Assembly: GCA_964534375.1 (NCBI GenBank)
Contig: CAZHPN010000020.1
Span: forward strand, 1 to 48,814
From: an uncultured bacterium
GTDB taxonomy: Bacteria > Lernaellota > Lernaellaia > Lernaellales > Lernaellaceae
Length of the DNA stretch: 48,814 nucleotides
Reading direction: 5' to 3'
The notes beneath the pieces are model-generated. The model did no database searches. It worked only from the letters and a program-made list of their open reading frames with translations, and had not been told where the DNA came from. This document shows positions 15,312 to 36,003 of this stretch, piece after piece (the first letter of the stretch is position 1; each line of letters starts with the position of its first letter). Made by a program: the position numbers and the translations under genes.

Positions 15312-15388
15312 TGGTGGTAGAGGAGGGACTCGAACCCTCGACCTAGCGGTTATGAGCCGCTTGCTCTAACCAACTGGGCTACTCTACC
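15312..15388 (-). tRNA. tRNA with CAT anticodon (tRNA-Ile2 or elongator tRNA-Met), encoded CCA
   Basis: GGTAGAG/CTCTACC acceptor stem, D-arm, AGCGG-CTCATAA-CCGCT anticodon arm, GGTTCGAGTCC T-arm, ACCA end; 77 nt. Confidence 0.95.
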
Positions 15389-17621: not shown

Positions 17622-18677
17622 TTATTTGCCAGCGCTCAGCGCGGTCACGATTTGCCGGATGTTGTAATCCGCCATGGAGAGATAGTCGTCCGTTCCCGGA
17701 CGCGCGCCGACCATATTCGCCATCGTCGCCACGTGCGCGCCGGCGTTGCGGGCCACGAAATCCGCATGACGCGGATCGTAGTACGCCGAGGCGAGAATTA
17801 GTTTCGCGCCGTCCGCCTTCATCGTCGCAATGAGTTCCTGCAAGTGATGTGTCGTCGGCGCCAGGCCGGGTTTCGGCTCGAGGTATCCGACCATCACCAA
17901 CCCAAAGCGCTTTGCGAAATACGGCCACAGGCTGTGATCGCCGACGGCTTTGGCGCCGTAGAACGGCTTCATCGCGCCGAGCCAGCCGCCGAGCGCCTGA
18001 TCGTCGCCCTGCTGTTTCAAGAAGGCGTCGAGTTTGCCGACCTCATACAGCGCGGCCAGTTTGGTGGCGTCGTATTTGGCGGCCAGGGTCGGACCGACCA
18101 AAGCCGCGCACATCTGTTGGCGGAACGCGGCGTAATTCGCCTGGAAATACGCCGCCTGCTCCGGCCGCAATTCGGACATCTTTTGGGTGATCAACGCGGC
18201 GACCTTCAGCCCGGCGAGCGGATCCAGCAGAAAATGCGGATTCCCGGCCGGATGCACGTCGCCCAGCGCCCGGTCCAAGCCGCCGGTCGGCACTTCCATC
18301 GGGGCAATCACCCGCGACGAGTCGAGATAACCGGGCGAGCCGGGTTGCACGACGTCGTTGCGGCAGTTCTTGAGCAGGACCGCGCTCCACGCGGCCTCCA
18401 GCTCCATGCCGGTCTCGATGAACAAATCCGCTTCGCTCAGCGCCTTGATGAAGCTCGGCTTCGCTTCGATGAAGTGCGCGTTTTCGGTCCCTTTCGAGAA
18501 CACGGTCAGTTTGATTTCCTTGCCGCCGATCACCCGGGCGAGGCTGCCGACATCGGGCGTCGTGGCGCACACGATCAGCGGGCCCGCCGCGGCGTGGGTC
18601 GCGACGCCGGTGAGGACGACAAGCGCGAGCGCCAGCAGGGCCGCGCTCGCCGCCATGAGTTTTTTCTGCATGTTCAT
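17622..18677 (-). CDS. znuA: Metal ABC transporter substrate-binding protein (cluster A-I, ZnuA-like)
   Basis: Signal peptide; ENAHF, GDVHPAGNPHFLLDP, GDHSL, EPKPG motifs. Confidence 0.9.
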   Translation of the reverse strand: MNMQKKLMAASAALLALALVVLTGVATHAAAGPLIVCATTPDVGSLARVIGGKEIKLTVFSKGTENAHFIEAKPSFIKALSEADLFIETGMELEAAWSAVLLKNCRNDVVQPGSPGYLDSSRVIAPMEVPTGGLDRALGDVHPAGNPHFLLDPLAGLKVAALITQKMSELRPEQAAYFQANYAAFRQQMCAALVGPTLAAKYDATKLAALYEVGKLDAFLKQQGDDQALGGWLGAMKPFYGAKAVGDHSLWPYFAKRFGLVMVGYLEPKPGLAPTTHHLQELIATMKADGAKLILASAYYDPRHADFVARNAGAHVATMANMVGARPGTDDYLSMADYNIRQIVTALSAGK

Positions 18678-18690
18678 TCTCCTTCTTCGC

Positions 18691-20301
18691 CTAGAAGTTA
18701 TGCGCCGGATGGGCGCCGTAAAGTATTTCCAAGCTCAACCATACGGAGTTCGCCTCCCCCGTTTTCAGGTGCGTGGCGATGTCGTGGTCGTATTCCAACC
18801 GCAACCGCGAAAAGTGCGTCGGGTTGAAGATGAAAGCCGCCGCCAGGCGCGTGCGGTCGTCGCGCAACGGATCGAGTTTCCGCGCCAGCCGATCGGCGCT
18901 GTCCGTATCGATCGCCGTCGCGTATTCGCCGCGCAACGTCAGCGCCCAATCGCGCACGAAGCCCCAGGTCAAAATCGAGAACACGCCCCAGTCGTTGAAA
19001 TCGCGCGCCGGCAAGTTGACGTTCGTCGTCAGCGGCGTCCCTTTCGCGGTTCCGGTCGGGATCCCGTTCGCCGTAAACTCCTGGGCGTGATAGTCGCGAC
19101 CGATGAACTCGGTCTGCCAGGAGATGAACGGCCAGCCGTATTCGTTGACGGCCGGCCGCCAGCGAACCAGAAAATCGGCGCCGTAAATCCACGCATATCC
19201 TTGCAGCCCGGTTTCGTTCGGGCCGCGCTCGCCGGAGAACCCGAGCAGAACCGAGGAGTCGCCCGGCGACCACGAATTTTCCCAGCGCCCTGAATAAACG
19301 AAGTCGCCTGCCTTGTCCACTCCCCGGTCGAAAATCGGCCGGCCCGCGATGCCGATTTTATAACCGGCGGTGGACAGCGCCCCCGCGTCCTGATAAGCGG
19401 CCACCGCGCCGTTCGGAGTGCCGAGGAAGCTCGGCATTTGTTCGCCGGTGGCGTTTTGCATGTTGACGAGCAGTTGGGAGTACCATGGCGTCGGCATCAG
19501 CCAGCCGATGCGCACGCCGCACCCTCGTTGACCGTCGCCGCCGAACATGCGCGTGATGGGCACGGGTTGAGTGATGTAATCCCACGTGTGCGGGTGCGTC
19601 GCGTTGGTGCGCCCGAACTCGGTAAGGTAATATCCGGCTTTAAATTGGACGGCCGGAATGTTCAGCGTCGTGGCGAAGGCCTCTTCAATCTCCACGCCGT
19701 CTTCTTTAAACACGATGTGCGATTCGCCGTAGAAATACGGATCGACCGCGCCGGAGGCCGAGATTTCCGCCTGCTGCAACGAGAAGCCGTTGCGGCTCGG
19801 ATCGTGGTCGCCGCCCTGCAGAATCGGTATTTGACTCGGCGGCGCCGACGACGCGCCCCCGGCCACCAGGATGTCCATCGAGATGTCGATCAATTTGATT
19901 TCGGCTTTGCCCGCCTTGACCGAGGCCAGGTCCGAACTGGCCGCTTTGGTTGTCGGCGTCGCCGGAACATTGATGTCTTCGACCGCGCGGTCCAGCGCCG
20001 ATTCCGGGCTTTCCGGCGCTTTTGGCGCCGGCGTGGCCTCGGCGGCCGGCTTTTTGGCTTCCAAGTCGGCCACTCGTTTTTTCAATTCTTCGATCAGTTG
20101 TTGATTTTGTTGACCCTGCTGTTGCAGCGCCTCGATTTGTTTGCGCAGCGTGGAAATGGTCGCGCTGGAGTCGTCGGCGGCCCGCGCCGCAGACGCGGCG
20201 GCGATGACGACGATCACCGCGGCCAACCCGATCGCCAAGACGCGCATGCTGCCCCGCAGGTCAAGACGCCCGAATAGCCTTGCTCTCACCTTGTCCTTCA
20301 T
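18691..20301 (-). CDS. Outer-membrane beta-barrel metal receptor (zinc-regulated OM receptor-like) with N-terminal coiled coil
   Basis: GGAGG RBS; signal plus coiled coil; GGDHDP, GAVDPYF, EEAF, NATHPHTW motifs; C-terminus YGAHPAHNF; directly upstream of znuA. Confidence 0.8.
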   Translation of the reverse strand: MKDKVRARLFGRLDLRGSMRVLAIGLAAVIVVIAAASAARAADDSSATISTLRKQIEALQQQGQQNQQLIEELKKRVADLEAKKPAAEATPAPKAPESPESALDRAVEDINVPATPTTKAASSDLASVKAGKAEIKLIDISMDILVAGGASSAPPSQIPILQGGDHDPSRNGFSLQQAEISASGAVDPYFYGESHIVFKEDGVEIEEAFATTLNIPAVQFKAGYYLTEFGRTNATHPHTWDYITQPVPITRMFGGDGQRGCGVRIGWLMPTPWYSQLLVNMQNATGEQMPSFLGTPNGAVAAYQDAGALSTAGYKIGIAGRPIFDRGVDKAGDFVYSGRWENSWSPGDSSVLLGFSGERGPNETGLQGYAWIYGADFLVRWRPAVNEYGWPFISWQTEFIGRDYHAQEFTANGIPTGTAKGTPLTTNVNLPARDFNDWGVFSILTWGFVRDWALTLRGEYATAIDTDSADRLARKLDPLRDDRTRLAAAFIFNPTHFSRLRLEYDHDIATHLKTGEANSVWLSLEILYGAHPAHNF

Positions 20302-20758
20302 GAAACCTCCGTTGCCGCGTAATTCGCGGCGCAATGATCGGCGCGGATTTCGCGTCGATCGTGCCGAACGTTGATTGCCGATCGTTAAAGACGTCACGCC
20401 GAAACGGCGGCGAATGTTTCGGCGCGACGGCCAGGATCGACCTGTGATCCAGCGCGGCGCTCGGTTTCACTTGCGGCGCGAGCGCCCGCAGCACGACCCG
20501 GAGAACCACGACCGCGAACGCGATCGGCCACAATTGGTTCTGGTTCAAGAAAAGCGGAACGATCTGACAGACTTCCGTGGAGTCTTCCGAAATGGCCGGC
20601 GACCCGGGCCGGCCAAAAACCACGGGGCGCTCCTTATGCTCCCAATTTCCCGTAACCGCGTTGAAGAAATGCGGCTCGCTGGCCAGGTGGGCCAGCGCCA
20701 ACAGCGGCCCCGCGAACAACAGCAAGGCCACAAGTTTGGCAACCGCGTTTCTCAACAT
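20261..20758 (-). CDS. Putative metal-sensing leader protein, copy 1 (APKHSPP); read-through extension overlaps the receptor start
   Basis: GGGAG RBS; clear paralogue of 20959..21321 and 28298..28660. Confidence 0.75.
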   Translation of the reverse strand: MLRNAVAKLVALLLFAGPLLALAHLASEPHFFNAVTGNWEHKERPVVFGRPGSPAISEDSTEVCQIVPLFLNQNQLWPIAFAVVVLRVVLRALAPQVKPSAALDHRSILAVAPKHSPPFRRDVFNDRQSTFGTIDAKSAPIIAPRITRQRRFHEGQGESKAIRAS

Positions 20759-20958
20759 TAACTCCCGCGCCACGTCGCGACGCTGCCGCCGGGCACGCTT
20801 CGCCCGCAACTGGCAGCGCCGGGCCGTTGTCGCCCTTCGCTTGGTGAAAATTGCCGGCTCGGGCATTTCCACGCTGCGTCCCACTGAGTGCTTGCCGCGC
20901 ACGAAACGGCGTGCTGCGGCGTTAGTTCAGCAACTTTCGACGAAGACGAATGAATTGA

Positions 20959-21321
20959 TCAAAGGGAAACGGGCGGGGAATTTTTCGGCGCCAACGCCAA
21001 CGTCAATTTGTGGTCGAATGGCTCCGATGCAGGTCGTTGAGAGCGGACTGCCAAGATAACAGCGGCCACGGCAACCATGGCCGCGGCGAGCAACCACATG
21101 CGGTTTTGACTCAAAAACGCGGAATAAATGCGGCAGGTCTCGCGGTCGATCGGCCGCAGGCCCTGCGCTCCAGCGGGCAGTTTCGCCGCGCCGGGCCGCG
21201 CGTGTTCCCACTCGCCGTCCGCGTCGTTGTAGAAATGCGGGACGAGCGCCATGTGCAGCAACGCAAATAACGGCCCCGCGAACAGGAGGAATACGATGAT
21301 TCTCGCGACGCGTTGCTTCAT
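20959..21321 (-). CDS. Putative metal-sensing leader protein, copy 2 (120 aa, ends APKNSPPVSL)
   Basis: GAGAGG RBS; two hydrophobic segments; conserved His/Cys; paralogous to copies 1 and 3. Confidence 0.85.
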   Translation of the reverse strand: MKQRVARIIVFLLFAGPLFALLHMALVPHFYNDADGEWEHARPGAAKLPAGAQGLRPIDRETCRIYSAFLSQNRMWLLAAAMVAVAAVILAVRSQRPASEPFDHKLTLALAPKNSPPVSL

Positions 21322-21347
21322 GGCCTCTCGCTCAAGTTATGGGGCGG

Positions 21348-21376
21348 AATTTATGCTATCGCGGCCCGGTTGTCAA
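21348..21376 (-). promoter_or_regulatory. sigma70 promoter of leader copy 2 and the uptake operon
   Basis: TTGACA-17 nt-TAAATT; same GGTTTTGACA context as the copy 3 promoter. Confidence 0.7.
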
Positions 21377-21470
21377 AACCCGGTCGGCGGCGAGTGCGGC
21401 GACGCGGAAACCCAGGGAGCGATGAACGGCGGGAGAATCAGAAGCGCCGATGACCGCCCGCGTCGAGCGT

Positions 21471-22367
21471 TCACGGTGCATTGCCTTTCACAAGGGCTTG
21501 CGCCAGATCGTGCGTCATTTGCGCGAGCGTGTCGACATAGGCGTGCGGGCCGGTCGGGCCGGACATGCCGGTCTCGACCGTGATCGCCGGCATTCGGACT
21601 TCATCGGCGAACAAATTCCATGTGCGCGGATCGACTTGGCGGTCGGCGAAAATGATCACCGGTCTTTCCTTCTTGAGCTGCTTCATGATCGCCGCGACCT
21701 CGCCCGCGCTGAGGCTGTGGTGCTCGTCGTCCGTCAACGGCGGCCCCGTCTCCAGGCCGGCGTCGCGCGCCAAATAGCTGAACATCGTCGTCGCCAGCGC
21801 GACGCGCTTGTTCGGCAGCGCCTGCACGACCTTCGCGAATTCTTCATGAAGAGCCCGCAAACGCCGCGAGACGGCAATGCCGTTTTCCGCATAGCGCGCC
21901 GCGTTTGGCGGATCGAGTTGCGCCAGCGCCTCGGCCAGCGTCAGCGCCATCGCGGCGCCTTGTTTCGGGCTGACAAACGGGTGCGGTTCGGCGTCGCCGG
22001 GGATTCGTTCGACGTTTTTGTCGAGGCGGATGATCGTCAACTTGGCGCGATAGTTCTCAGCCAACTTATCGAGCCACGGTTCGTAACCCGCCCCGACGGC
22101 AATCAACGCCTTGGCCTTTTCGATTGCCTTCATGTCGCCCGGCTGCAATTGGTAATCGTGCGCGCACCCGGCGGCGATCGGCACGAGTTGGCGCACGTAG
22201 ACGCCGGGCGCGCCGTCGGCGACCGCCAGCGTCAGATTCTGCAACGGCAGGATCGTCGCCACCAAATTCAACGGTTTCCGCGGCCGGACAGCGCCCCGGC
22301 CGAAGGCCGGCGAAGCCAGCGTGGCGCACGCCAGCAACGCGACCGCCAACAGCCATTCGGTTTTCAT
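21471..22367 (-). CDS. Second metal ABC substrate-binding protein (ZnuA/TroA-like)
   Basis: Signal peptide; LVATILPL, GCAHDYQL, EPHPFVSP, LDPPNAARY motifs; GAAGGAG RBS. Confidence 0.85.
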   Translation of the reverse strand: MKTEWLLAVALLACATLASPAFGRGAVRPRKPLNLVATILPLQNLTLAVADGAPGVYVRQLVPIAAGCAHDYQLQPGDMKAIEKAKALIAVGAGYEPWLDKLAENYRAKLTIIRLDKNVERIPGDAEPHPFVSPKQGAAMALTLAEALAQLDPPNAARYAENGIAVSRRLRALHEEFAKVVQALPNKRVALATTMFSYLARDAGLETGPPLTDDEHHSLSAGEVAAIMKQLKKERPVIIFADRQVDPRTWNLFADEVRMPAITVETGMSGPTGPHAYVDTLAQMTHDLAQALVKGNAP

Positions 22368-22441: not shown

Positions 22442-25400
22442 TCAGTCGGTTGTCTCCACAGTCTTTTCCTTCTCCACCATCGGGTAGAGGATCGGCAAGA
22501 TCAGCAACGTCAATATCGTCGCCGTGACCAGCCCGCCGATAATGACCACCGCGAACGGTTGCGCGGTTTCGGCGCCGACCCTGTCCGACAGGGCGACTGG
22601 CAGCAGGCCGAGGATCGCCATCGAACTGATCATCGTGTCGACGCGGGCGCGGGAAACGGCGCCTTCGACGACCGCTTCCAGCATCGGTTTTCCTTCCAGC
22701 CGCAATTGCCGGATGCGCTCGACCAGGATGACGCCGCTTTGGATCGCGACGCCGAAGAGCGCAATGAAGCCGACCATCGAGGACACCGACAAGTTCAAGT
22801 GCGCGATCGGCAGCGCCAGAATGCCGCCCACTGCGGCGAACGGCACGCACAGCAGGATCAAGCCCGCCAGGCGGCCGGATGAGCCGAACGCCGAAAACAG
22901 CAGGAAGAACATGGCGAGCAGCGTCAGCGGAATCACGACCATCAGGCGTTTCGTGGCCCGTTGCTGGTTTTCGAACGCGCCCGCCCACGTGACCCGATAG
23001 CCTCGCGGCATTTTTTTGAGTTCCGGATCGGCCGCTTTCCGGGCGTCGGCGACCACGGAACCCAAAGCGCGGTCGCGCACGCCGAACTTGACGGCGATGC
23101 CGCGCGCGTTCTCCTCGCGATACAACTTGACGAAGCCCGAGGCCACCTTGACGGTCGTCACGGCGCCGAGCGTCAATCGTTCGCCGTTCGCGCCGAAAAT
23201 GGGAATATTGCGAATCGAATCCAGGTCGGACACCGCGCGGGGCGCCAGTTTCACCGTCAGGTCGAACGTCCGCTCGCCTTCCAACACCTGCGTCGCCACG
23301 CCGCCGCCCATCGCTGTTTCGACCACCGTTTGGACGTCCGAAACGCTCAGCCCGTACCGGGCGATCGCGTCGCGATCGACGGCGATTTGAATTTGCGGCT
23401 GCCCCATCAGTTGTTCGGCGCTGACATCCACGGCGCCCGGAATATTTTTGATCGCCACCGTCAAATTGTCGGCCGTTTTTTGCAGGATGGCCGGGTCTTC
23501 GCCGAAGATTTTGATGCTCAGTTCGCTTTTGATTCCGGAGACGGCCTCGTTGATCATATCTTCCATATATTGACTGAATTGCGGGTCGATTCCGGGGATG
23601 GTCTTCAGCTTGGCCCCCATCGCGTCGCACAACTTCTCGCGCGTCTTTGCGGTCGTCCACTCCGACCGCGGCGTCAATCCGACGCCGAATTCGCAAATGT
23701 CGAACCCGTTGTTGTCGGTGCCGTCATCCGGGCGGCCGATGTTGCTGAATACATCGATCACCTCGGGAAACGACATCAAGATTTCGCGCATTTTTCTCAC
23801 CACGCGCGCCGATTCGGACGGCGAAATCGTCGGCGGCATGAACACGCGGACCCACAGCGTGCCCTCGTCGAGCTTCGGCAAAAACTCGGTGCCCATCAGC
23901 GCCAAACAGACGCCGGCCGCGAACAACAAGGCCGCGACCCCTGCGAGAGCTTTCTTCCGGTGGCGGATCACGCCCAGCAGCAGGGGGCGATACCAACGGA
24001 GCAGCGCATGGACAAGGCGGGAATGCTTCAGCACGACTTTCTTCCGCAACGCAAAACTCGCCATCACCGGCACGATCGTCAGCGCAAGCAGCGTTCCGGC
24101 GATCACCGCGAAGGTCAGCGTCAGCGCCATCGGCTTAAAGATGCGGCCTTCGACGCGTTGCAGCGAATACAGCGGGATGAACGCCGTCAGCAGAATCGCC
24201 TTAGCGAACAGGATCGGCCGGCCCATTTGCGACACGGCATCGATAATGGTCGTTGTGAGCGGGGTGGGGTGGTCTTTTCGCTCTTCCATCAACCGCAGGA
24301 TGTTCTCGATAATCACGACCGAGGAATCGACAATGATGCCAAAATCGATGGCGCCCATCGAAATCAAGTTCGCTGGAATGTGGCGCAGATCGAGCAGAAA
24401 AAACGCCCCGAGCAGCGACATCGGCACGACCGAGCCAACGACCAACGCCGAGCGGTAATTCCCCAGCCCCAGAAACAGCATCAGCACGCCCAACACCAGG
24501 AGGATGCCGGTGATCATGTTGTGGCGCACGGTATAAAGCGTCAGGTCAAGCAACGGCTCCCGATCGTAGTGCAAGGCGACTTTGACCCCGGGGGGCAGCA
24601 AGCGCTCGTTGATTTCGTCGACCTTCGCGTGGATCCGTTTCAATACTTCGCGCGCGTTCTCCCCGCGCTTCATCCAGGGGTTGCCTTGCGGGATGTCGTC
24701 GTTGTCCACCCAGTTTTGCGCCGTCGCGGCGACCGGCTGCCCGGCGCTCCGCTCCGGGCCCCGGCCAATGAACCACCCGTTCCGGAGAGACAACCCGACC
24801 TGATTCAAACGCACCTTCTCACCGATCACGACCGCGCCGACGTCGCGAATGCGGATCGGCACGCCGTTACGCGTATCCACGGCGATCGCCCCGATGTCTT
24901 CCGTGTTCTGGACGAACCCCAGGCCGCGCACAATGTACAGTTCTGAGCCGTGTTCCACGTAGGAGCCGCCGGCGTTGCGGTTGCCGTTCGACAGGGCGTC
25001 GAACACCTGTTTCACGGACACGTTGTAGGAGCGCAATTTTTGCGGATCGACCAGCACTTGATATTCTTTGATCGGTCCGCCGAAGCCGCTCGCGTCGACG
25101 ACGCCCGGGACGGTTTTCAACTGCCGTTCGACGACCCAGGTCATCAGCGCTTTCAATTCCACGCCGGAGAAACCGGGCGGCGCCGTCATCATGTACCGGC
25201 AAACGTCGCCGATGGGGGTCGTGTCCGGCGACAGCGAGGCCTGCGCGCCCGCCGGCAAAGTCACTTCCGTCATGTGCTGGAAGGCCAGGTTGCGGACCAA
25301 GTCGCTGTTGGCGTCGTCGGCAAAAACCATCGTCACCACGGACAGCCCGAACAGCGAAAACGACCGCATGGACACCCGCTTGGGAATGCCGTTCATTTCG

Positions 25401-25615
25401 CTTTCGATCGGAATTGTGACGAGCTTTTCCACTTCCTCGGCGGCATGGCCCGGAAACAGCGTGATGATTTGCAATTCCAGGTTCGTCACGTCGGGATAGG
25501 CGTCGACCGGCAACGTGATGCAGGAGTGCACGCCAAAAAAAACGAACACCACCGTCAAGAACAGCAAGACGGCGCGGTGTTTCAGGGCGTAGGCGGTGAG
25601 TTTGCCCATCGTCAT
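22442..25615 (-). CDS. czcA: CusA/CzcA family heavy-metal efflux RND permease
   Basis: LPVDAYPDVT, EEVEKLVTIPIE, PANLISMGAIDFGIIVD, GTEFLPKLDEG, FAVVIIGGL motifs; ATGA overlap with the MFP gene. Confidence 0.92.
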   Translation of the reverse strand: MTMGKLTAYALKHRAVLLFLTVVFVFFGVHSCITLPVDAYPDVTNLELQIITLFPGHAAEEVEKLVTIPIESEMNGIPKRVSMRSFSLFGLSVVTMVFADDANSDLVRNLAFQHMTEVTLPAGAQASLSPDTTPIGDVCRYMMTAPPGFSGVELKALMTWVVERQLKTVPGVVDASGFGGPIKEYQVLVDPQKLRSYNVSVKQVFDALSNGNRNAGGSYVEHGSELYIVRGLGFVQNTEDIGAIAVDTRNGVPIRIRDVGAVVIGEKVRLNQVGLSLRNGWFIGRGPERSAGQPVAATAQNWVDNDDIPQGNPWMKRGENAREVLKRIHAKVDEINERLLPPGVKVALHYDREPLLDLTLYTVRHNMITGILLVLGVLMLFLGLGNYRSALVVGSVVPMSLLGAFFLLDLRHIPANLISMGAIDFGIIVDSSVVIIENILRLMEERKDHPTPLTTTIIDAVSQMGRPILFAKAILLTAFIPLYSLQRVEGRIFKPMALTLTFAVIAGTLLALTIVPVMASFALRKKVVLKHSRLVHALLRWYRPLLLGVIRHRKKALAGVAALLFAAGVCLALMGTEFLPKLDEGTLWVRVFMPPTISPSESARVVRKMREILMSFPEVIDVFSNIGRPDDGTDNNGFDICEFGVGLTPRSEWTTAKTREKLCDAMGAKLKTIPGIDPQFSQYMEDMINEAVSGIKSELSIKIFGEDPAILQKTADNLTVAIKNIPGAVDVSAEQLMGQPQIQIAVDRDAIARYGLSVSDVQTVVETAMGGGVATQVLEGERTFDLTVKLAPRAVSDLDSIRNIPIFGANGERLTLGAVTTVKVASGFVKLYREENARGIAVKFGVRDRALGSVVADARKAADPELKKMPRGYRVTWAGAFENQQRATKRLMVVIPLTLLAMFFLLFSAFGSSGRLAGLILLCVPFAAVGGILALPIAHLNLSVSSMVGFIALFGVAIQSGVILVERIRQLRLEGKPMLEAVVEGAVSRARVDTMISSMAILGLLPVALSDRVGAETAQPFAVVIIGGLVTATILTLLILPILYPMVEKEKTVETTD

Positions 25616-26742
25616 TTCCCCGCGTATTCGAGCAATTGCTGCAGGAGCAGGCTGCCGTCCGTCACGAGGCGGTGGCCGGCCATTAAACCGCCGGTCACAT
25701 TGATTTTGCCGGCGTGTTCGCCGGCGATCTGGACCTCGTGCCGCGCGAACCGGCCCTTGCCCTCGTCGACGAACACGAAGTATTTGCCCTCTTTCACAAA
25801 AACGGCGCGCTTCGAGATCGCCATTTCCGGCGCGGCGCTTTTTTCCACATCCACCGTGACGTACATCTCGGCCTTCAGCGCCCGCGTCGGGTTGTCGACG
25901 CTGCCGCGCGCTTTGACCGTCCGGGTGCTCGGATCGAGCGCATCGGTGATAACGTTCAACGTCCCGGGGAACAGGTCCGTGGGATAAGCCTGCGTATAAA
26001 CTTTGAAGATTTGTCCGGGGTGCAGCGACGACAAATCTTTTTCCGCGACGTCCATCTGCAACCACAGTTTCGTCGGGTCGGTCACGACAAACATCGGCGG
26101 CATGGCCGAAATCAGTTCATCGGGCCGGACTTCGCGCCCGATGCTCAGATTCCGTTCGACGACCACGCCGGCGACCGGGCTGCGCAAAGTGAAGGCGCCC
26201 GCCGTTTCCGCGCCGATCGAGCCGACGTTCGCCAGCCTCGTCAACGCCCGCTCTTTCTCGGCGCGCGCCCGGCCGAAATCGGCCTCCGCCCCCTCTACAT
26301 CTTTTTTCGCGGCGGCCCCGTGATCGAACAAGTCGCGCATCCGCGACAAGGCGCGGTCGGTTTGCACGAAGTCGCTCTCCGCCTTGCGCGCATCCGCCTT
26401 CGCCTGGCCGAAATCCGGCGAATCGATCAGCGCCAGCGCCTGGCCTTTGGCCACGGGCTTGCCGATATCGACGAAGATTTCGCGCACGCGGCCGGCGAGC
26501 GGCGCAAAAACGCGCGCGGTGACGTCGTCGTTCCACATCAACCGGCCGGTCATCTGAATGAACGAGCCTTGCCGTATTTCGACCGGCTCGATCGTCAGCG
26601 ACGCGAGTTGCGCGGGGTCGTTCAGGGTCAGGCGGTCCCCGACGACTTCATAAGGCCGATTTCCGTCCGCGGCCCCGGCCCGGGCGCAGCCGGTGAACGC
26701 GGCCGAAAAAATGACCATCGCAATTACGAAGAAGGTTTTCAT
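25612..26742 (-). CDS. czcB: RND efflux periplasmic adaptor (CzcB-like lipoprotein)
   Basis: Lipobox FTGC; APLAGRV, SPDFGQA, LRSPVAGVV, LDPSTRTVK motifs. Confidence 0.9.
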   Translation of the reverse strand: MKTFFVIAMVIFSAAFTGCARAGAADGNRPYEVVGDRLTLNDPAQLASLTIEPVEIRQGSFIQMTGRLMWNDDVTARVFAPLAGRVREIFVDIGKPVAKGQALALIDSPDFGQAKADARKAESDFVQTDRALSRMRDLFDHGAAAKKDVEGAEADFGRARAEKERALTRLANVGSIGAETAGAFTLRSPVAGVVVERNLSIGREVRPDELISAMPPMFVVTDPTKLWLQMDVAEKDLSSLHPGQIFKVYTQAYPTDLFPGTLNVITDALDPSTRTVKARGSVDNPTRALKAEMYVTVDVEKSAAPEMAISKRAVFVKEGKYFVFVDEGKGRFARHEVQIAGEHAGKINVTGGLMAGHRLVTDGSLLLQQLLEYAGK

Positions 26743-26778
26743 GGCTTGCCTCTTCCCAGGGTTCAAACCCCGGGTAAA

Positions 26779-26820
26779 TTGTGCATTGTTCATTGTTCAT
26801 CGTTCATTGCTCACTGTTCA
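26779..26820 (-). repeat. Six-unit heptamer array TGAACAG TGAGCAA TGAACGA TGAACAA TGAACAA TGCACAA
   Basis: Read directly; starts at the czcC stop codon. Confidence 0.8.
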
Positions 26821-28116
26821 CTGTTTTCCGAGCGCCGCTTTCAGCGACGCCGCCGCGGCGGCGGTGTCGCTCGCCGCTTGGGCCGCGCCCAGGCGGACAT
26901 CGTTGTCGTTGCGTTCCGCCGACAGCAGATCGAGCAGCGAGGCGTTGCCCTTTTCATAGGCGTACGCCACGGCGAGCCGGACCTGCGCCGACCGTTGTCG
27001 AATTGAATCGCGATAGGCCCGCCAACGTAATTTGGCCGCCCGATACGCCGCCCGCGCCGTCAGCACGTCGGCGGCGATTTGCGCTTGCGTCTTCTCGACG
27101 GCGAGGCGCGCCTGCTCACTCGCGGCGGCGGCGGTGTGGACCGCGCCGAGGTTGAAATTCCAAAAAGGCAACGGCAGGCTCAGGCCGAAGCCGACCGTGT
27201 TCGGCTGCGCGGGCGGCTCGCGTTCGTACTGCGCGCTGATCGTCAAATCGGGAATCGCCATCGCCTTTTGCGAGCGGACATCCGCTTCGGCTTTTCGTTG
27301 CGCCGTTTGGGCCGCGACCAGGTCCGGACGCGGCCCCGCCGGCTCCTGCCCCTCGCCCGCCTCGACCTCCGCCAAGGCGTCCAGAGTTTCGACCGCCTTC
27401 CATTGGCCCGTCGGTTGCGAAATGCCTAGCAACGTCTCCAAGGCGATCCGCGCCGAAACGGCGGCCACCGCGGCAGTGTCCGCGTCGAGGTCGAAGCGTT
27501 CCGCCGCGATTTCAATCTGAATTTTGTCGGTGACCGAAATGTCGCCGGCCTTCAGCCGAACCGCCGCGATCTCGGCCTCTTTGCGCAAGGTCGCAGCCGA
27601 CGCTTTCAGAATCCGCACGTTCTCCTCGGCCTGCACCGCCGCAACGTAACCGTTGGCGACGTTCAGATTGAGCAGCCGTTTGGCGTCGAGAAAGCGCGCG
27701 CGGGCGCTTTGCAGCCCCGCCGCCGCAGAATCCTGCCGGTGGCCGCGCTTGCCCAATTCGAAAAACTCGCTCACCCCGGCGGTAGTGTCGTAATTGCGCT
27801 CGAAAAAGCCGTTCCCCATCGTGGTCCGGCTCGTTCGATCGACATTAATCAGGGTTTCCGAGAGATTCAGCGTCGGATTCGGAAACTCGCGGGAGGTTTC
27901 GTCGACGCCCTTCGCCGCGTCCACATCGCCGCCGGCGGTGAGCAAATCCCAGTTGTTCTGCACGGCGAGGCGCTGCGCCTCGGCCAGCGACAGCGTCGCC
28001 GGCGCAGCGGTCGAGTCTGCAGCGCCGGTGACAGCCGGAACCGCGACGCCCCACAACGCCGCAATTAATCCGGACAACGCCCAAGCAAAGGTTGGCCCAA
28101 GCCAAAGCTTCTGCAT
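26818..28116 (-). CDS. czcC: TolC-family outer-membrane efflux protein (CzcC-like)
   Basis: AAGGAG RBS; LSLAEA..AVQNN, PNPTL, RPDL, LSLPLPFWNFNLG, AYEKGNASLLDLL OEP motifs. Confidence 0.9.
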   Translation of the reverse strand: MQKLWLGPTFAWALSGLIAALWGVAVPAVTGAADSTAAPATLSLAEAQRLAVQNNWDLLTAGGDVDAAKGVDETSREFPNPTLNLSETLINVDRTSRTTMGNGFFERNYDTTAGVSEFFELGKRGHRQDSAAAGLQSARARFLDAKRLLNLNVANGYVAAVQAEENVRILKASAATLRKEAEIAAVRLKAGDISVTDKIQIEIAAERFDLDADTAAVAAVSARIALETLLGISQPTGQWKAVETLDALAEVEAGEGQEPAGPRPDLVAAQTAQRKAEADVRSQKAMAIPDLTISAQYEREPPAQPNTVGFGLSLPLPFWNFNLGAVHTAAAASEQARLAVEKTQAQIAADVLTARAAYRAAKLRWRAYRDSIRQRSAQVRLAVAYAYEKGNASLLDLLSAERNDNDVRLGAAQAASDTAAAAASLKAALGKQ

Positions 28117-28297
28117 CGAAGGCTCCTTTACGCAACCCGATCGGCGGCAACTTACGCCGCGCACAAGCCGTTCGTTTATGATTTCGCTCGCCGCGAACAT
28201 TCGCGGGCCGCTTTGTCAGTCTTGTCGGGACTGCAATCTGGACGCCGCGCCGCGACAGGATCGTTGGCGAATGTTGACGACGGCGACGGTAAGGAGG

Positions 28298-28660
28298 CTA
28301 GGCAGACGTCGGTGGGGAGTTCTTCGGGGCCAGAGCCAAGGTCAGTTTGTGATCGAATGGTGCAGATGCAGGTTGCGGCGAATTCACCGTCAAGAGGACG
28401 GCAACCAGGGCCGCGATTGCCGCCGCCAGCACCCACATGCGGGTTTGATTCAAAAATGTCGCGTATATCTCGCAGGTCTCGCGGTCGACTGCTCGGAGGC
28501 CGCGCGACCCATCAGGAATCGGCGCCGCGCCTGGTCGCGGGTGTTCCCACTCGCCCGTGGCGCCGTTGTAGAAATGCGGAATGAGGGCCATGTGCAGCAA
28601 CGCGAGCAACGGCCCGGCAATCAGGAGGAATACGATAATTTTCGCGATACGTTGCTTCAT
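28298..28660 (-). CDS. Putative metal-sensing leader protein, copy 3 (120 aa, ends APKNSPPTSA)
   Basis: GAGG RBS; same length (363 nt) and colinear with copy 2. Confidence 0.85.
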   Translation of the reverse strand: MKQRIAKIIVFLLIAGPLLALLHMALIPHFYNGATGEWEHPRPGAAPIPDGSRGLRAVDRETCEIYATFLNQTRMWVLAAAIAALVAVLLTVNSPQPASAPFDHKLTLALAPKNSPPTSA

Positions 28661-28685: not shown

Positions 28686-28714
28686 AACCTACACCTGCGC
28701 GGCTCCGATGTCAA
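28686..28714 (-). promoter_or_regulatory. sigma70 promoter of leader copy 3 and the czcCBA operon
   Basis: TTGACA-17 nt-TAGGTT. Confidence 0.6.
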
Positions 28715-32916: not shown

Positions 32917-33510
32917 CTACGGTTGTTTCGGCTCCTCGGGCGTCGGCTCCTCGGCGGCCGGCGGCGTTTCGACCGGCACGGTCTCGTCCGGCGCCGCGGG
33001 GGCTGGTTCCTCGGCCGGGGCCGGCGCCGCTTTTTCGGCTTCGGCCTTGACCTTGGGCTTGCCGCGTCGTTTGGCGGCCGATTTCTTGCTCTTTTCGGCC
33101 ACTTCTTCGTCGGCGGCGAGGAATTCGATAAAGCTGACGCGGGCGCCGTCGCCGATGCGGTCGCCGACTTTGATGATCCGCGTGTAGCCGCCGGAGCGAT
33201 CGGCGAAACGGGCCGCGAGTTCGTCGAACAATTTGGTCACGGCGTCTTTGTCGCGCACGAAGGCCAACGCCTGGCGCCGCAGATGCAGCTTGCGCGCGGC
33301 GATGGAGGTGTCGGCGGCGTTCTCGCCGAGGGCGCGGGCGCGTTTGGCGATCGTCACCATTTTTTCGACGTAGTGACGGAGTTCTTTCGCCTTTTCGTTC
33401 GTCGTCTTGATCCGCTCGTGGACGATCAGACTGGTGGTCATGTTCCGCCACATGGCGTAGCGGTGCGTCGAGTTGCGGTTGAATTTTCTTCCGGTTTTCA
33501 GATGGCGCAT
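32917..33510 (-). CDS. rplQ: 50S ribosomal protein L17 with C-terminal extension
   Basis: [26 protein letters not shown]. Confidence 0.97.
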
Positions 33511-33551
33511 CGTTCTTCCCTTCTAACTCCCGACTTCGTTCTCCCGGCTGC

Positions 33552-34547
<996 letters not shown>

Positions 34548-34587
34548 CGTTCAACTCCCTTTCCGGTCGGCTCGTTCGGTCGCCGTG

Positions 34588-35217
34588 TTACTTCGAATAC
34601 AACTCGACGATCAACTTCTCGTTGATCGTGCCGCCAATCTCTTCGCGGGTCGGATTGGATTTCACCTCGCCTTCGAGCTTGTCGGGGCGGATTTCCAACC
34701 AGGGCGGCGTCTGGCGGCGGCCCATGGCCTCGACCGCCTCGACAATCAACGGAACTTTCCGGCTCTGCTCGCGCACCGCGACGGTCTGGCCGGGTTTGAC
34801 GATGGCGCTGGGCACGTTGGTCTTGCGGCCATTGATGGCGAAATGGCCGTGTCGCACCATCTGCCGCGCCTGCCGCCGGCTCGCGGCGAAACCCATGCGG
34901 AAGACGACGTTGTCCAGGCGGCGTTCGAGCAACGACAGCAGGTTGTCGCCCGTGACGCCCTGCATGCGCTCGGCCTTGGCGAAGTAGCCGCGGAATTGCC
35001 GCTCCAGAATGCCGTAGTAGCGCTTCGCTTTTTGTTTCGCGCGAAGCTGGGCGCCGTAATCGCTCGACTTGCCGCGCCGCTGCCAATGCTGGCCTGGGAT
35101 TTGTTCCTTGCGGCGTTCAAAGGCGCACTTGTCGGTGAAACAGCGATCGCCCTTCAAAAACAGTTTCTCGCCTTCGCGGCGGCAATATCTGCAAACAGGT
35201 CCGGTATACTTTGCCAA
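34588..35217 (-). CDS. rpsD: 30S ribosomal protein S4 (Zn-binding form)
   Basis: TTG start; CRYCRRE..C....[18 protein letters not shown]. Confidence 0.98.
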
Positions 35218-35229
35218 TGTCCGTCCTCC

Positions 35230-35619
35230 TTAGACGCGCCGCCGCTTCGGCGGCCGGCAACCATTGTGCGGAATCGGGGTCTCGTCGCGGATCATCGTGA
35301 TCTTGAAGCCGCAGGCCAGCAGGCTGCGCAGCGCGGCTTCGCGGCCCGGCCCGGGCCCCTTCACGAGGATCGACAACTGCTGGACGCCATGTTCGCCGGC
35401 TTTGCGCGCGGCGTCTTCGGCGGCGAGCTGGGCGGCGAACGGCGTGCCTTTGCGGCTGCCCTTGAAGCCCTGCGTGCCGCTGCTGGACCAGCACAGGGTG
35501 TTGCCGGACGCATCGCTGATCGTCACGATCGTGTTGTTGAACGTGCTCTTAATATGGGCCACGGCCTGCGGCACGTTCTTCTTGATCTTCTTTTTAGCAC
35601 CGCGCTTGGGGGATGCCAT
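35230..35619 (-). CDS. rpsK: 30S ribosomal protein S11
   Basis: [24 protein letters not shown]. Confidence 0.98.
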
Positions 35620-35637
35620 CGATTACCCTCCCGTTCC

Positions 35638-36003
35638 TTACTTTTTCCGGCCCATCGTCCGGCGCGGCCCTTTGCGCGTCCGAGCGTTGGTGTGGGTGCG
35701 CTGGCCGCGCACGGGCAGACCGCGGCGATGGCGCAGCCCACGATAGGCGCCCAGGTCCATCAGCCGTTTGATGTTCATCTGCGTTTCTTTGCGCAGATCG
35801 CCTTCGACCTTGACCTTCGCGTCGATGATCTGGCGGATGCGCGCGACCTGGCCGTCCGTCAACTTGGCGGCGCGGACCGACTGGTCGATCCCCGCTTCCT
35901 CCAGAATCTTCTGGCTCGTCGTGCGGCCGATTCCGTAGATGTAGGTGAGCGCGATCACGATCCGTTTGTCGTTCGGAATGTCGACGCCTGCTATACGTGG
36001 CAC
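35638..36003 (-). CDS. rpsM: 30S ribosomal protein S13
   Basis: [22 protein letters not shown]. Confidence 0.98.

Follow-up and report, generated by a model that had tools for sequence, protein, structure and literature searches.

The closest described systems to the one considered here are CutF and CruR. CutF of Rhodobacter capsulatus combines a Sec signal, a CxxxC motif and a proline-rich tail, and its translation, its export and copper are all needed to open a stem-loop in which an anti-Shine-Dalgarno (anti-SD) sequence shields cutO's Shine-Dalgarno (SD) sequence; when the anti-SD of this stem-loop is mutated, CutO rises about 10-fold (PMC9973294). A preprint reports that CutF stalls at PPP, overriding EF-P (10.1101/2025.02.05.636593). 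In Bordetella pertussis, mutations in the RAPP motif of CruR (Bp2923) abolish expression of the downstream TonB-dependent transporter, and copper relieves the arrest, whereupon Rho terminates (PMC9426467). Arrest at RAPP was later demonstrated in vitro, the third and fourth codons of the motif, both proline, occupying the P and A sites (PMC12992588). The same literature catalogues 5,334 CutF-like proteins, which most often have an OEP gene of the CusC/CzcC/SilC type as their downstream neighbour and some clusters of which carry His-only motifs (PMC9973294), and describes long intergenic distances as typical of DUF2946 operons (PMC9426467, PMC9973294). Here we analyse a 48,814-nucleotide (nt) stretch of DNA from an uncultured Lernaellaceae bacterium (contig CAZHPN010000020.1 of assembly GCA_964534375.1; hereafter the window), in which a small open reading frame (ORF) precedes a run of genes resembling czcCBA. 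Judging by its likeness to CutF and CruR, this ORF very probably encodes a metal-sensing protein of their kind with a candidate stalling motif at its C-terminus, and czcCBA is probably under post-transcriptional control by it. The RNA pairing through which the initial annotation had proposed that this control acts is real as a sequence observation, yet not demonstrably beyond chance.

The small ORF occupies positions 28298..28660 of the minus strand, on which every other feature of the window given below also lies, and encodes 120 amino acids (aa) followed by a TAG stop. It had been described as the third of a set of leaders; the ORF is indeed present, but with 120 codons (28660-28298) it is no short leader. 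It is copy 1 of three paralogues in the window, the whole genome containing none elsewhere: copy 2 (20959..21321) likewise encodes 120 aa and is 73% identical to copy 1, and copy 3 (20261..20758) encodes 165 aa at 41-42% identity. Between copies 1 and 2 there are 49.8 synonymous and 41.2 non-synonymous changes, and the resulting ratio of non-synonymous to synonymous rates (dN/dS), 0.18, means that the protein is under purifying selection. An AlphaFold2 (AF2) model built from 47 sequences has a predicted local distance difference test (pLDDT) value of 86.8 and consists of a helix at residues 2-26, three short strands, helices at residues 64-70, 72-92 and 104-110, and then the tail. Metatranscriptome contigs from three studies (X1, X2 and X3) fall on 28252-28651 with at most 1 differing letter, and one RNA-library contig extends 46 nt beyond the copy 1 stop; these contigs carry no strand, end or level information, and the gap in their coverage over czcC is uninformative. 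Because there are three paralogues, a dN/dS of 0.18, a confident AF2 model and matching RNA contigs, we take the ORF to encode a real protein.

The features of this protein would suit a small, putatively exported or membrane-anchored metal binder with a proline motif near its end. Its N-terminus carries the basic residues K2, R4 and K7 and then the hydrophobic helix predicted by AF2 at residues 2-26, a segment that may be an uncleaved anchor. The putative metal ligands are His23 (codon 28592-28594) and Cys63 (codon 28472..28474), which are invariant among the 47 aligned sequences, together with His29 (codon 28574-28576), conserved in at least 90% of them. The candidate stalling site, A111-P112-K113-N114-S115-P116-P117, is encoded at 28310..28330 by the codons GCC CCG AAG AAC TCC CCA CCG, and 53 residues lead from Cys63 to the first proline of its PP. 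As in CutF-like proteins, the length is below 150 aa (120 aa), the proline motif is C-terminal (P116-P117 of 120) and a gene follows on the same strand, in this case czcC after 181 nt; and, as among DUF2946 proteins, whose metal and proline motifs keep their spacing to within 1-2 residues, the corresponding distance is nearly constant in the family described next.

These features recur across a family of proteins that shares the APKxSPP tail. Although the mean column identity of the 47-sequence alignment is only 19%, H23, C63, A111, P112, K113, P116 and P117 are invariant, and H29 and S115 are kept in at least 90% of the sequences. The residue before the serine is N, H, Q or another, with lysine two places before the serine, and the PP is followed by 1-8 residues and a stop. 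Window copy 3 (P0003) is the exception, having a 46-residue tail after SPP that runs into the start of the next gene; since copies 1 and 2 end 3 residues after SPP, the usual stop of copy 3 may have been lost. The overlap of the copy 3 ORF with the start of this next, porin-like gene (ATG 20304, SD GGAGG) amounts to 41 nt. From the invariant cysteine to the first proline there are 50-53 residues in 44 of the 47 sequences, and 48, 49 and 55 in the rest. The cysteine usually stands in the context H-x-H-C or H-E-x-C, with no CXXC, and most members have a second cysteine in H-x2-C-x2-H, which the window copies lack.

The family is scattered in its distribution. Searching 5.8 billion proteins by word index brought up nothing beyond the two proteins of the window itself, and a profile search covering 1.84 billion representatives yielded 10 matches, of which 9 were full-length (116-165 aa). 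Even by profile, no member was detected in any of the 16 other genomes from the phylum of the window, and the same kind of search places the family in 15 of 400 other sampled genomes, spread over many families. One phylum stands out with 165 of 401 sampled genomes, including 113 of the 172 in one family, a tally that takes in a genome marked unpublished (G596), on which nothing else in this analysis depends; of the 200 or more loci that this search brought up, 30 were used. The phyla around genomes G187 and G176 comprise 2 and 5 genomes only. A narrower-alignment search for related loci yielded L005-L008, which are identical DNA from the same organism, L009, on a contig reaching 80 nt past the stop, and the fragment L010. 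The sole match of a scan of genome contigs, in Leptospira alstonii, was discarded as chance, lying off-frame inside a gene for 632 aa.

Throughout the family the next gene on the same strand begins 30-396 nt downstream, and in 28 of 43 loci it encodes a homologue of the porin-like protein at 20304-18691. A CzcC-like OEP follows at one other locus, L039 of genome G678 (blastp E 1.3e-18 to the window's czcC product), where the small ORF ends in APKHGPPAA, the spacer has 112 nt and no anti-SD is evident near the stop. With porin-like partners at 28 of 43 loci and one further OEP locus, the czcC-linked copy is therefore the unusual one. The 3.0-Mb genome G279 has two copies, L027 and L017, at loci of 32% and 36% G+C, one lying 30 nt before the gene of an ATP-binding cassette (ABC) transporter ATPase and the other 48 nt before a lipoprotein-like gene with weak epidermal growth factor (EGF)-like matches; the partners of the family are therefore not porins alone.

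Set beside CutF (cutFOG), the locus shares a small protein of less than 150 aa, an N-terminal segment that may be an export signal, a metal-homeostasis gene downstream on the same strand, and a Cys/His motif about 45-50 residues before the C-terminal proline motif. The logic of CutF, in which an anti-SD on the downstream SD is opened by a stalled ribosome, is also that of the initial annotation, so that the mechanism it invoked exists and is published for gene arrangements which ours resembles. The sequences differ, however: CutF has CxxxC and PPP, the APKxSPP family His...His...Cys and APKxSPP; the usual partner is porin-like (28/43 loci), that of CutF a copper enzyme; and, unlike in CutF, the two arms proposed here lie 157 nt apart and their pairing is indistinguishable from chance. 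CruR likewise heads an operon for an outer-membrane transport protein, its intergenic distance (162 nt, cruR-bfrG) is close to the 181 nt found here, and its proline motif stands 3 residues before the C-terminus with a spacing to the metal ligand of the same kind. It differs in having RAPP with an essential arginine where the family has K-x-S-P-P without arginine, in having CXXC where the family has a single invariant cysteine and histidines, and in acting through Rho termination, being switched off by copper.

The pairs SecM-secA, MifM-yidC2 and VemP-secDF share with the scheme proposed here the upstream ORF, the N-terminal export or anchor segment, the C-terminal arrest motif and an SD freed by the stall; they monitor the machinery for secretion or insertion, whose components they regulate, and their arrest sequences are unrelated to APKxSPP. 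Neither the genes of the czcC run (OEP, HlyD, ACR_tran) nor the relatives' porin-like gene is a protein-localisation component; what lies downstream is a metal efflux pump or a porin, and the conserved His/Cys residues point to metal sensing. By gene arrangement and description only, the locus may also be likened to small DUF2946-type or CutF-like ORFs before operons for resistance-nodulation-division (RND) pumps: the DUF2946 gene CC2720 of Caulobacter lies directly before czrCBA (PMC4176598), and CzcI of Cupriavidus, upstream of czcCBA, is CutF-like without a proline motif and has been suggested to be a metal-sensing regulator (PMC9973294).

Some results weigh against this kinship. DUF2946 is the sole Pfam family matched by more than one APKxSPP protein (5 of 47, best E 0.0031), but none of the 47 reaches its gathering cut-off of 23.7 bits (PF11162), and the window proteins have no match to PF11162 at E <= 0.01. 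A PF11162 search of the organism's own genome and the 400 sampled genomes found no DUF2946 gene to compare the family with. The small proteins of the window have no Pfam or NCBIfam match. APKxSPP, having no arginine, is not of the RAPP/RxPP type shown to arrest, to which the R-(A/G)-P-P motifs of ApdA, ApdP and CruR belong (PMC12992588), and the confident two-helix AF2 fold would also fit a stable membrane protein that acts in trans. On sequence criteria the APKxSPP family is no formal member of DUF2946, since it lacks CXXC and RAPP and scores below the cut-off. We found no description of APKxSPP proteins in full-text searches, to which a motif string lends itself poorly and which did not extend to the supplementary lists and logos of PMC9973294 and PMC9426467; the family may already be catalogued in those supplements.

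The reading that we favour, with slightly better than even confidence and by analogy with CutF and CruR, is that the ORF at 28660-28298 senses metal and, as a regulatory upstream ORF, controls czcCBA in cis. The nascent chain would be exported or anchored by its N-terminal hydrophobic segment and would display His23, His29 and Cys63 outside the ribosome, while the APKNSPP tail would occupy the peptidyl-transferase centre and the exit tunnel. The dwell of the ribosome at Ser-Pro-Pro, three codons before the stop, would vary with metal occupancy, and the dwell time would set the expression of czcCBA from the same transcript. Stalling at a Pro-Pro tail is plausible and is already known in kind. 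The signal could reach czcC by either of two routes, namely pairing of CCUCCUUAC with AAGGAG, which chiefly a ribosome at the stop codon or close to it would open, or Rho-dependent termination in the 181-nt spacer, as in CruR. The His/His/Cys ligands and the two ZnuA-like genes of the cluster suggest that the metals sensed would be of the zinc type.

The first of these routes was the one put forward in the initial annotation, and much of what it described in the letters is correct. The minus strand reads ...AAG AAC TCC CCA CCG ACG TCT GCC TAG CCTCCTTACC, in agreement with the part that had been quoted, with the TAG at 28300-28298. Directly after it, CCTCCTTAC (CCUCCUUAC) at 28297-28289 may be an anti-SD or else the beginning of a C-rich stretch. 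The czcC start region reads GCGTAAAGGAGCCTTCGATG, in which GTAAAGGAG (GUAAAGGAG; 28131-28123), the 6-nt gap CCTTCG and the ATG (28116-28114) make up the ribosome-binding region (28114..28131). A ribosome-binding site (RBS) and start at ATG 28116 are credible, as AAGGAG stands 6 nt upstream, the encoded N-terminus is signal-peptide-like and the product matches Pfam OEP. The complementarity of the two arms is also borne out, with six base pairs (CUCCUU:AAGGAG), one bulged A and then AC:GU. The pairing was said to close a GC-rich spacer of 181 nt. That figure holds as the intergenic length (28117..28297), but the actual loop has 157 nt, and with 61% G+C against 64% in the genome the spacer has no special richness. 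Within 15 nt after the stop, CCTCC or CTCCT occurs for 67 of the 7566 long ORFs of the genome (0.9%), a rarity that gives the observation some favour, but post hoc.

Whether the pairing exceeds what any gene would offer was judged against 1061 starts of the same genome, chosen as ATGs that NGGAGN precedes by 4-8 nt and that open ORFs of 200 codons or more; the best duplex of each was taken between the 18-nt RBS region and the upstream region from -260 to -30. The outcome, like that of the folding, weighs against a switch built on these two arms. RNAduplex gives them a weak -11.0 kcal/mol, and the best upstream duplexes of the 1061 starts have a median of -16.7 and a 95th percentile of -10.6, so that about 93% of these strong-SD genes have an upstream partner at least equal to the one proposed. 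The best partner of the czcC RBS region itself is another segment, ending at 28155, at -19.1. Since nearly every gene has an equal or better partner, the proposed pairing is not beyond chance. In the minimum free energy (MFE) structure of 28340-28100 the helix is absent and the SD pairs locally with 28143-28132, the fold having a z-score of 0.00 against shuffles. The pairing is nevertheless present in the folding ensemble, with a core-pair probability that ranges from 0.02 to 0.75 according to the construct: 0.30-0.34 in 28340-28100, 0.02-0.06 in 28300-28100, 0.66-0.75 in 28320-28090, 0.18-0.21 in 28400-28060 and 0.24-0.27 in 28660-28060. The anti-SD:SD helix is thus an accessible alternative whose weight is set by arbitrary construct ends, and no construct leaves the SD guanines unpaired, with or without this helix.

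Masking and conservation lead in the same direction. When the anti-SD, or the footprint of a ribosome at Pro116, Pro117 or the stop, is held unpaired, the SD does not reliably open: the opening energy of AAGGAG falls by at most 2.2 kcal/mol, in one construct, and in three longer constructs it is unchanged, slightly lower (by up to 0.9 kcal/mol) or higher. Opening the czcC SD costs 6.76 kcal/mol in a -225..+30 construct, a cost equalled or exceeded by 18% of 324 control genes. The zone test for copy 1 gave a p_block of 0.73 and a P_zone of 0.13. The anti-SD is not kept at the corresponding position in the two closest relatives, copy 2 and L009. Downstream of the stop, the first ~60 nt can be aligned loosely among the three, and opposite CCTCCTTAC of copy 1 stand TCAATT--C (copy 2) and TCGTC---C (L009); in this comparison, however, copy 2 has a different downstream gene and that of L009 is not seen.

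The geometry is likewise unfavourable to the proposal that a ribosome held at Pro-Pro reaches or melts the anti-SD. Counted from the first bases of the Pro116 and Pro117 codons, the anti-SD begins (28296) 19 and 16 nt downstream, respectively, and it spans +7 to +14 from the codon of Ala120, the P-site residue of a terminating ribosome. A ribosome covers the mRNA to about +15 nt from its P-site codon. If it is arrested on Pro116 (P site) and Pro117 (A site), the anti-SD is out of reach; with Pro117 in the P site, the ribosome touches its first one or two bases; and the whole anti-SD is covered only by a terminating ribosome at the stop codon. Translational attenuation as proposed is thus supported in kind, through a candidate stalling metal-sensor upstream ORF with the hallmarks of CutF and CruR, and not in its specific anti-SD, which is no stronger than chance. 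As the route by which the signal reaches czcC, the CCUCCUUAC:AAGGAG switch seems to us unlikely, and the proposed hairpin should not be annotated as a feature without experiments.

Across the family, a signal at the level of RNA or of decoding is seen at the codons of the motif itself. In 40 loci with a G+C content of at least 0.57, and with the serine and proline codons of the same loci as background, the first proline of PP is CCT in 18 of 40 cases, as against 82 of 1273 (6.4%), and the motif serine is TCT in 12 of 40, as against 38 of 1343 (2.8%); the second proline is CCT in 3 of 40 and the proline of APK in 0 of 40. CCT at the first proline occurs in 5 of 13 lineages. This bias puts (U)CUCCUCC, a word complementary to the SD, at the presumed stall site. 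When 10-nt windows were slid over ~330 nt of the ORF and over the spacer, 10 of 45 loci, representing 8 families, had their best complement of the downstream SD at Ser-Pro-Pro, as against about 10% expected from the window counts; copy 2, whose SPP codons best match the SD region of its next gene, is among them and copy 1 is not. In the folding ensembles of 9 of 41 loci, copy 2 among them, pairing of the SD core with a zone that reaches from the Ser codon to 15 nt past the stop exceeds a probability of 0.5.

In a clade with spacers of 67-69 nt, RNAalifold pairs the Ser-Pro UCUC with the SD GAGG, and CCGG with CCGG. This helix has 92.5% of its cells paired, as compared with 36-58% when the partner is slid, and 7 of 500 shuffles reach its covariation score. 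Some 25-45 nt ahead of the GTG start, on the upstream side of CCGGUUCGAGGAG, L031, L045, L053, L054, L055 and L058 also show a GC hairpin that by eye seems to stay paired although the sequence differs, as in GACGUCCGCCC...GGGCGACGUC against GACGCUCGUG...CGAGCGUC. The 15 nt next to the stop were also tried as a family-wide anti-SD and rejected: over 17 loci their complementarity ranks run from 0 to 0.99 with means of 0.43-0.52, 5 of the 17 having a rank of 0.12 or less at stop+1..+15. CTCC was seen by eye within 15 nt after the stop in 7 of 48 loci, as against 2.6% of the long ORFs of the window's genome.

These codons admit a more specific and more tentative form of the favoured reading, which we hold to be possible but somewhat improbable. 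In it, APKxSPP would be an undescribed branch of arrest peptides, with a zinc-type sensor, whose arrest codons UCU CCU CC are themselves the anti-SD of the next gene; a ribosome on the arrest site would uncover the downstream RBS, and its departure would re-close it. In the czcC copy the anti-SD would have moved from the Ser-Pro codons (UCC CCA CCG) to the nine bases after the stop, so that one cluster would contain an efflux-linked and an uptake-linked copy of the sensor; the His/His/Cys ligands and the ZnuA and porin neighbours would make it a sensor of the zinc type and not of copper. Other findings on the same codons run counter to this proposal. The bias could reflect slow decoding of rare codons rather than an anti-SD, and the excess of SD complements at SPP is in part a by-product of C-rich SPP codons. 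The 9 of 41 loci are little above chance because the zone makes up 15-25% of each construct. The covariation in the clade amounts to one pair (UA 6, GC 4, unpaired or other 5), and as single-sequence folds rarely show the pairing (P_zone 0.0-0.14, 14 of 15 at 0.0), it is thin evidence.

Of the explanations that dispense with the anti-SD, the one that survives best, though we hold it about as unlikely as the anti-SD switch, is attenuation of the CruR type, in which a ribosome at SPP or the stop would shield the spacer from Rho and, once it has left, Rho would load on C-rich RNA and terminate before czcC. On this view CCUCCUUACC would be part of a pyrimidine-rich Rho loading site and its SD complementarity incidental. 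The spacer length resembles that of cruR-bfrG among the typically long gaps of DUF2946 operons (PMC9426467, PMC9973294), and the position of the proline motif, 3 residues from the C-terminus, and the metal-ligand spacing are of the same kind as in CruR. Over the first 60 nt after the copy 1 stop the C/G ratio is 1.67, at about the 95th percentile of genomic 60-mers (1.6), and C exceeds G in the small ORFs of 16 of 17 loci. The spacer has no Rfam match (gathering threshold or E <= 5), no promoter-like site and no intrinsic terminator with a U-tail, and when both spacers and both promoter regions were compared by blastn with the genome as a whole, only short chance matches appeared. The skew is modest, however, and is gone over the whole spacer (C/G 1.06). 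The spacer is also predicted to contain a long imperfect hairpin of 103 nt (28184..28286), kept in the centroid structure and lying inside the loop of the proposed pairing, and Rho loading sites are usually unstructured. Moreover, metal turns the CruR operon off, which suits an uptake gene and not an efflux pump unless the logic is inverted.

Less probable still is that the complementarity is coincidental and that there is no RNA switch in cis, the 120-aa product being a stable two-helix metal-binding membrane protein that serves the pump or porin as an accessory or trans-acting regulator, with its APKxSPP tail a protein-protein contact or sorting motif. The AF2 model (pLDDT 86.8), with its two long helices and small sheet, the purifying selection along the whole protein and a pairing no better than chance would all agree with this, and CzcI, which is CutF-like but lacks the proline motif, has been suggested to be a metal-sensing regulator (PMC9973294). 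Such a protein would leave unexplained why the motif lies 1-8 residues from the stop (46 in copy 3) and 50-53 residues from the cysteine across a nearly unconserved region, why rare TCT and CCT codons are confined to the serine and first proline, and why the ORF constantly stands on the same strand directly before a gene with a strong SD. That the czcC RBS is instead structured through other partners (a hairpin at 28143-28117 or the -19.1 kcal/mol partner ending at 28155) and that translation of the small ORF remodels the spacer globally is very improbable: the MFE structure does pair the SD with 28143-28132, the best upstream duplex does end at 28155 and the SD guanines are paired in every construct, but masking 28143-28132 shifts the opening energy by at most 1.6 kcal/mol, the SD opening energy is ordinary for the genome, and these partners lie at least 100 nt beyond the reach of a ribosome on the small ORF.

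The genes around the favoured cis-acting ORF are those of metal transport. The czcC-like gene (26818..28116) encodes an outer-membrane factor of 432 aa (Pfam OEP, E 4.6e-36) and is followed by genes for a czcB-like membrane-fusion protein (25612..26793; HlyD_D23, E 1e-34) and a czcA-like RND pump (22442..25615; ACR_tran, E 2.2e-225), the czcA start ATG, as read from the translation, overlapping the czcB stop (ATGA). At 24200-24260, czcA carries DFGIIVDSSVVIIEN, at the site where heavy-metal RND pumps presumably have DFG-DGA-VEN. A gene for a ZnuA-like periplasmic metal-binding protein (21471..22367; ZnuA, E 2.2e-44) closes the czcC run, which therefore holds an uptake-type binding protein inside an apparent efflux operon. 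Next to copy 3, the porin-like gene (18691..20304) encodes an outer-membrane protein of 537 aa that matches 28 of the 43 downstream proteins of other loci by blastp (E <= 8.5e-5); the relatives' porin-like proteins have weak Porin_O_P or BBP2 matches. A second ZnuA-like gene (17622..18677; ZnuA, E 2.5e-40) comes after it, so that of the two such genes in this part of the window (17622-22367 and 22442-28116) one ends the czcCBA run and one follows the porin-like gene.

A possible promoter upstream of copy 1, TTGACA-17 nt-TAGGTT (28686..28714, with TTGACA at 28709-28714), was read by eye, as were similar hexamers before copy 2 (TTGACA-17-TAAATT, 21365-21370 region) and before L009 (TTGACA-17-TAATGT, 1641-1646); upstream of all three, the perfect TTGACA has GGTTT just before it. 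A consensus scan made no call at TTGACA-17-TAGGTT, because its second hexamer matches at 3 of 6 positions only. Farther upstream of the metal cluster, the translations indicate a run of rplQ-, rpoA-, rpsD-, rpsK- and rpsM-like genes (32917-36003), and a tRNA gene at 15315-15388 is the sole Rfam match within the window.

Neither the arrangement nor the mechanism considered here is new in kind; novelty may lie in the APKxSPP branch, in the porin and ZnuA proteins that are its partners, and in the anti-SD word formed by rare codons at the stall site. To our knowledge, the control of metal transport by a nascent, exported, self-stalling sensor peptide has been shown in CutF and CruR only, both of which respond to copper. 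If the favoured reading is true, the APKxSPP family would extend this principle to other metals and other arrest sequences, with His/His/Cys ligands and with porin-like, ZnuA-like and CzcCBA partners; APKxSPP would be a new natural arrest motif, and position-specific rare codons at the stall site would provide a simple signature by which such switches could be found.

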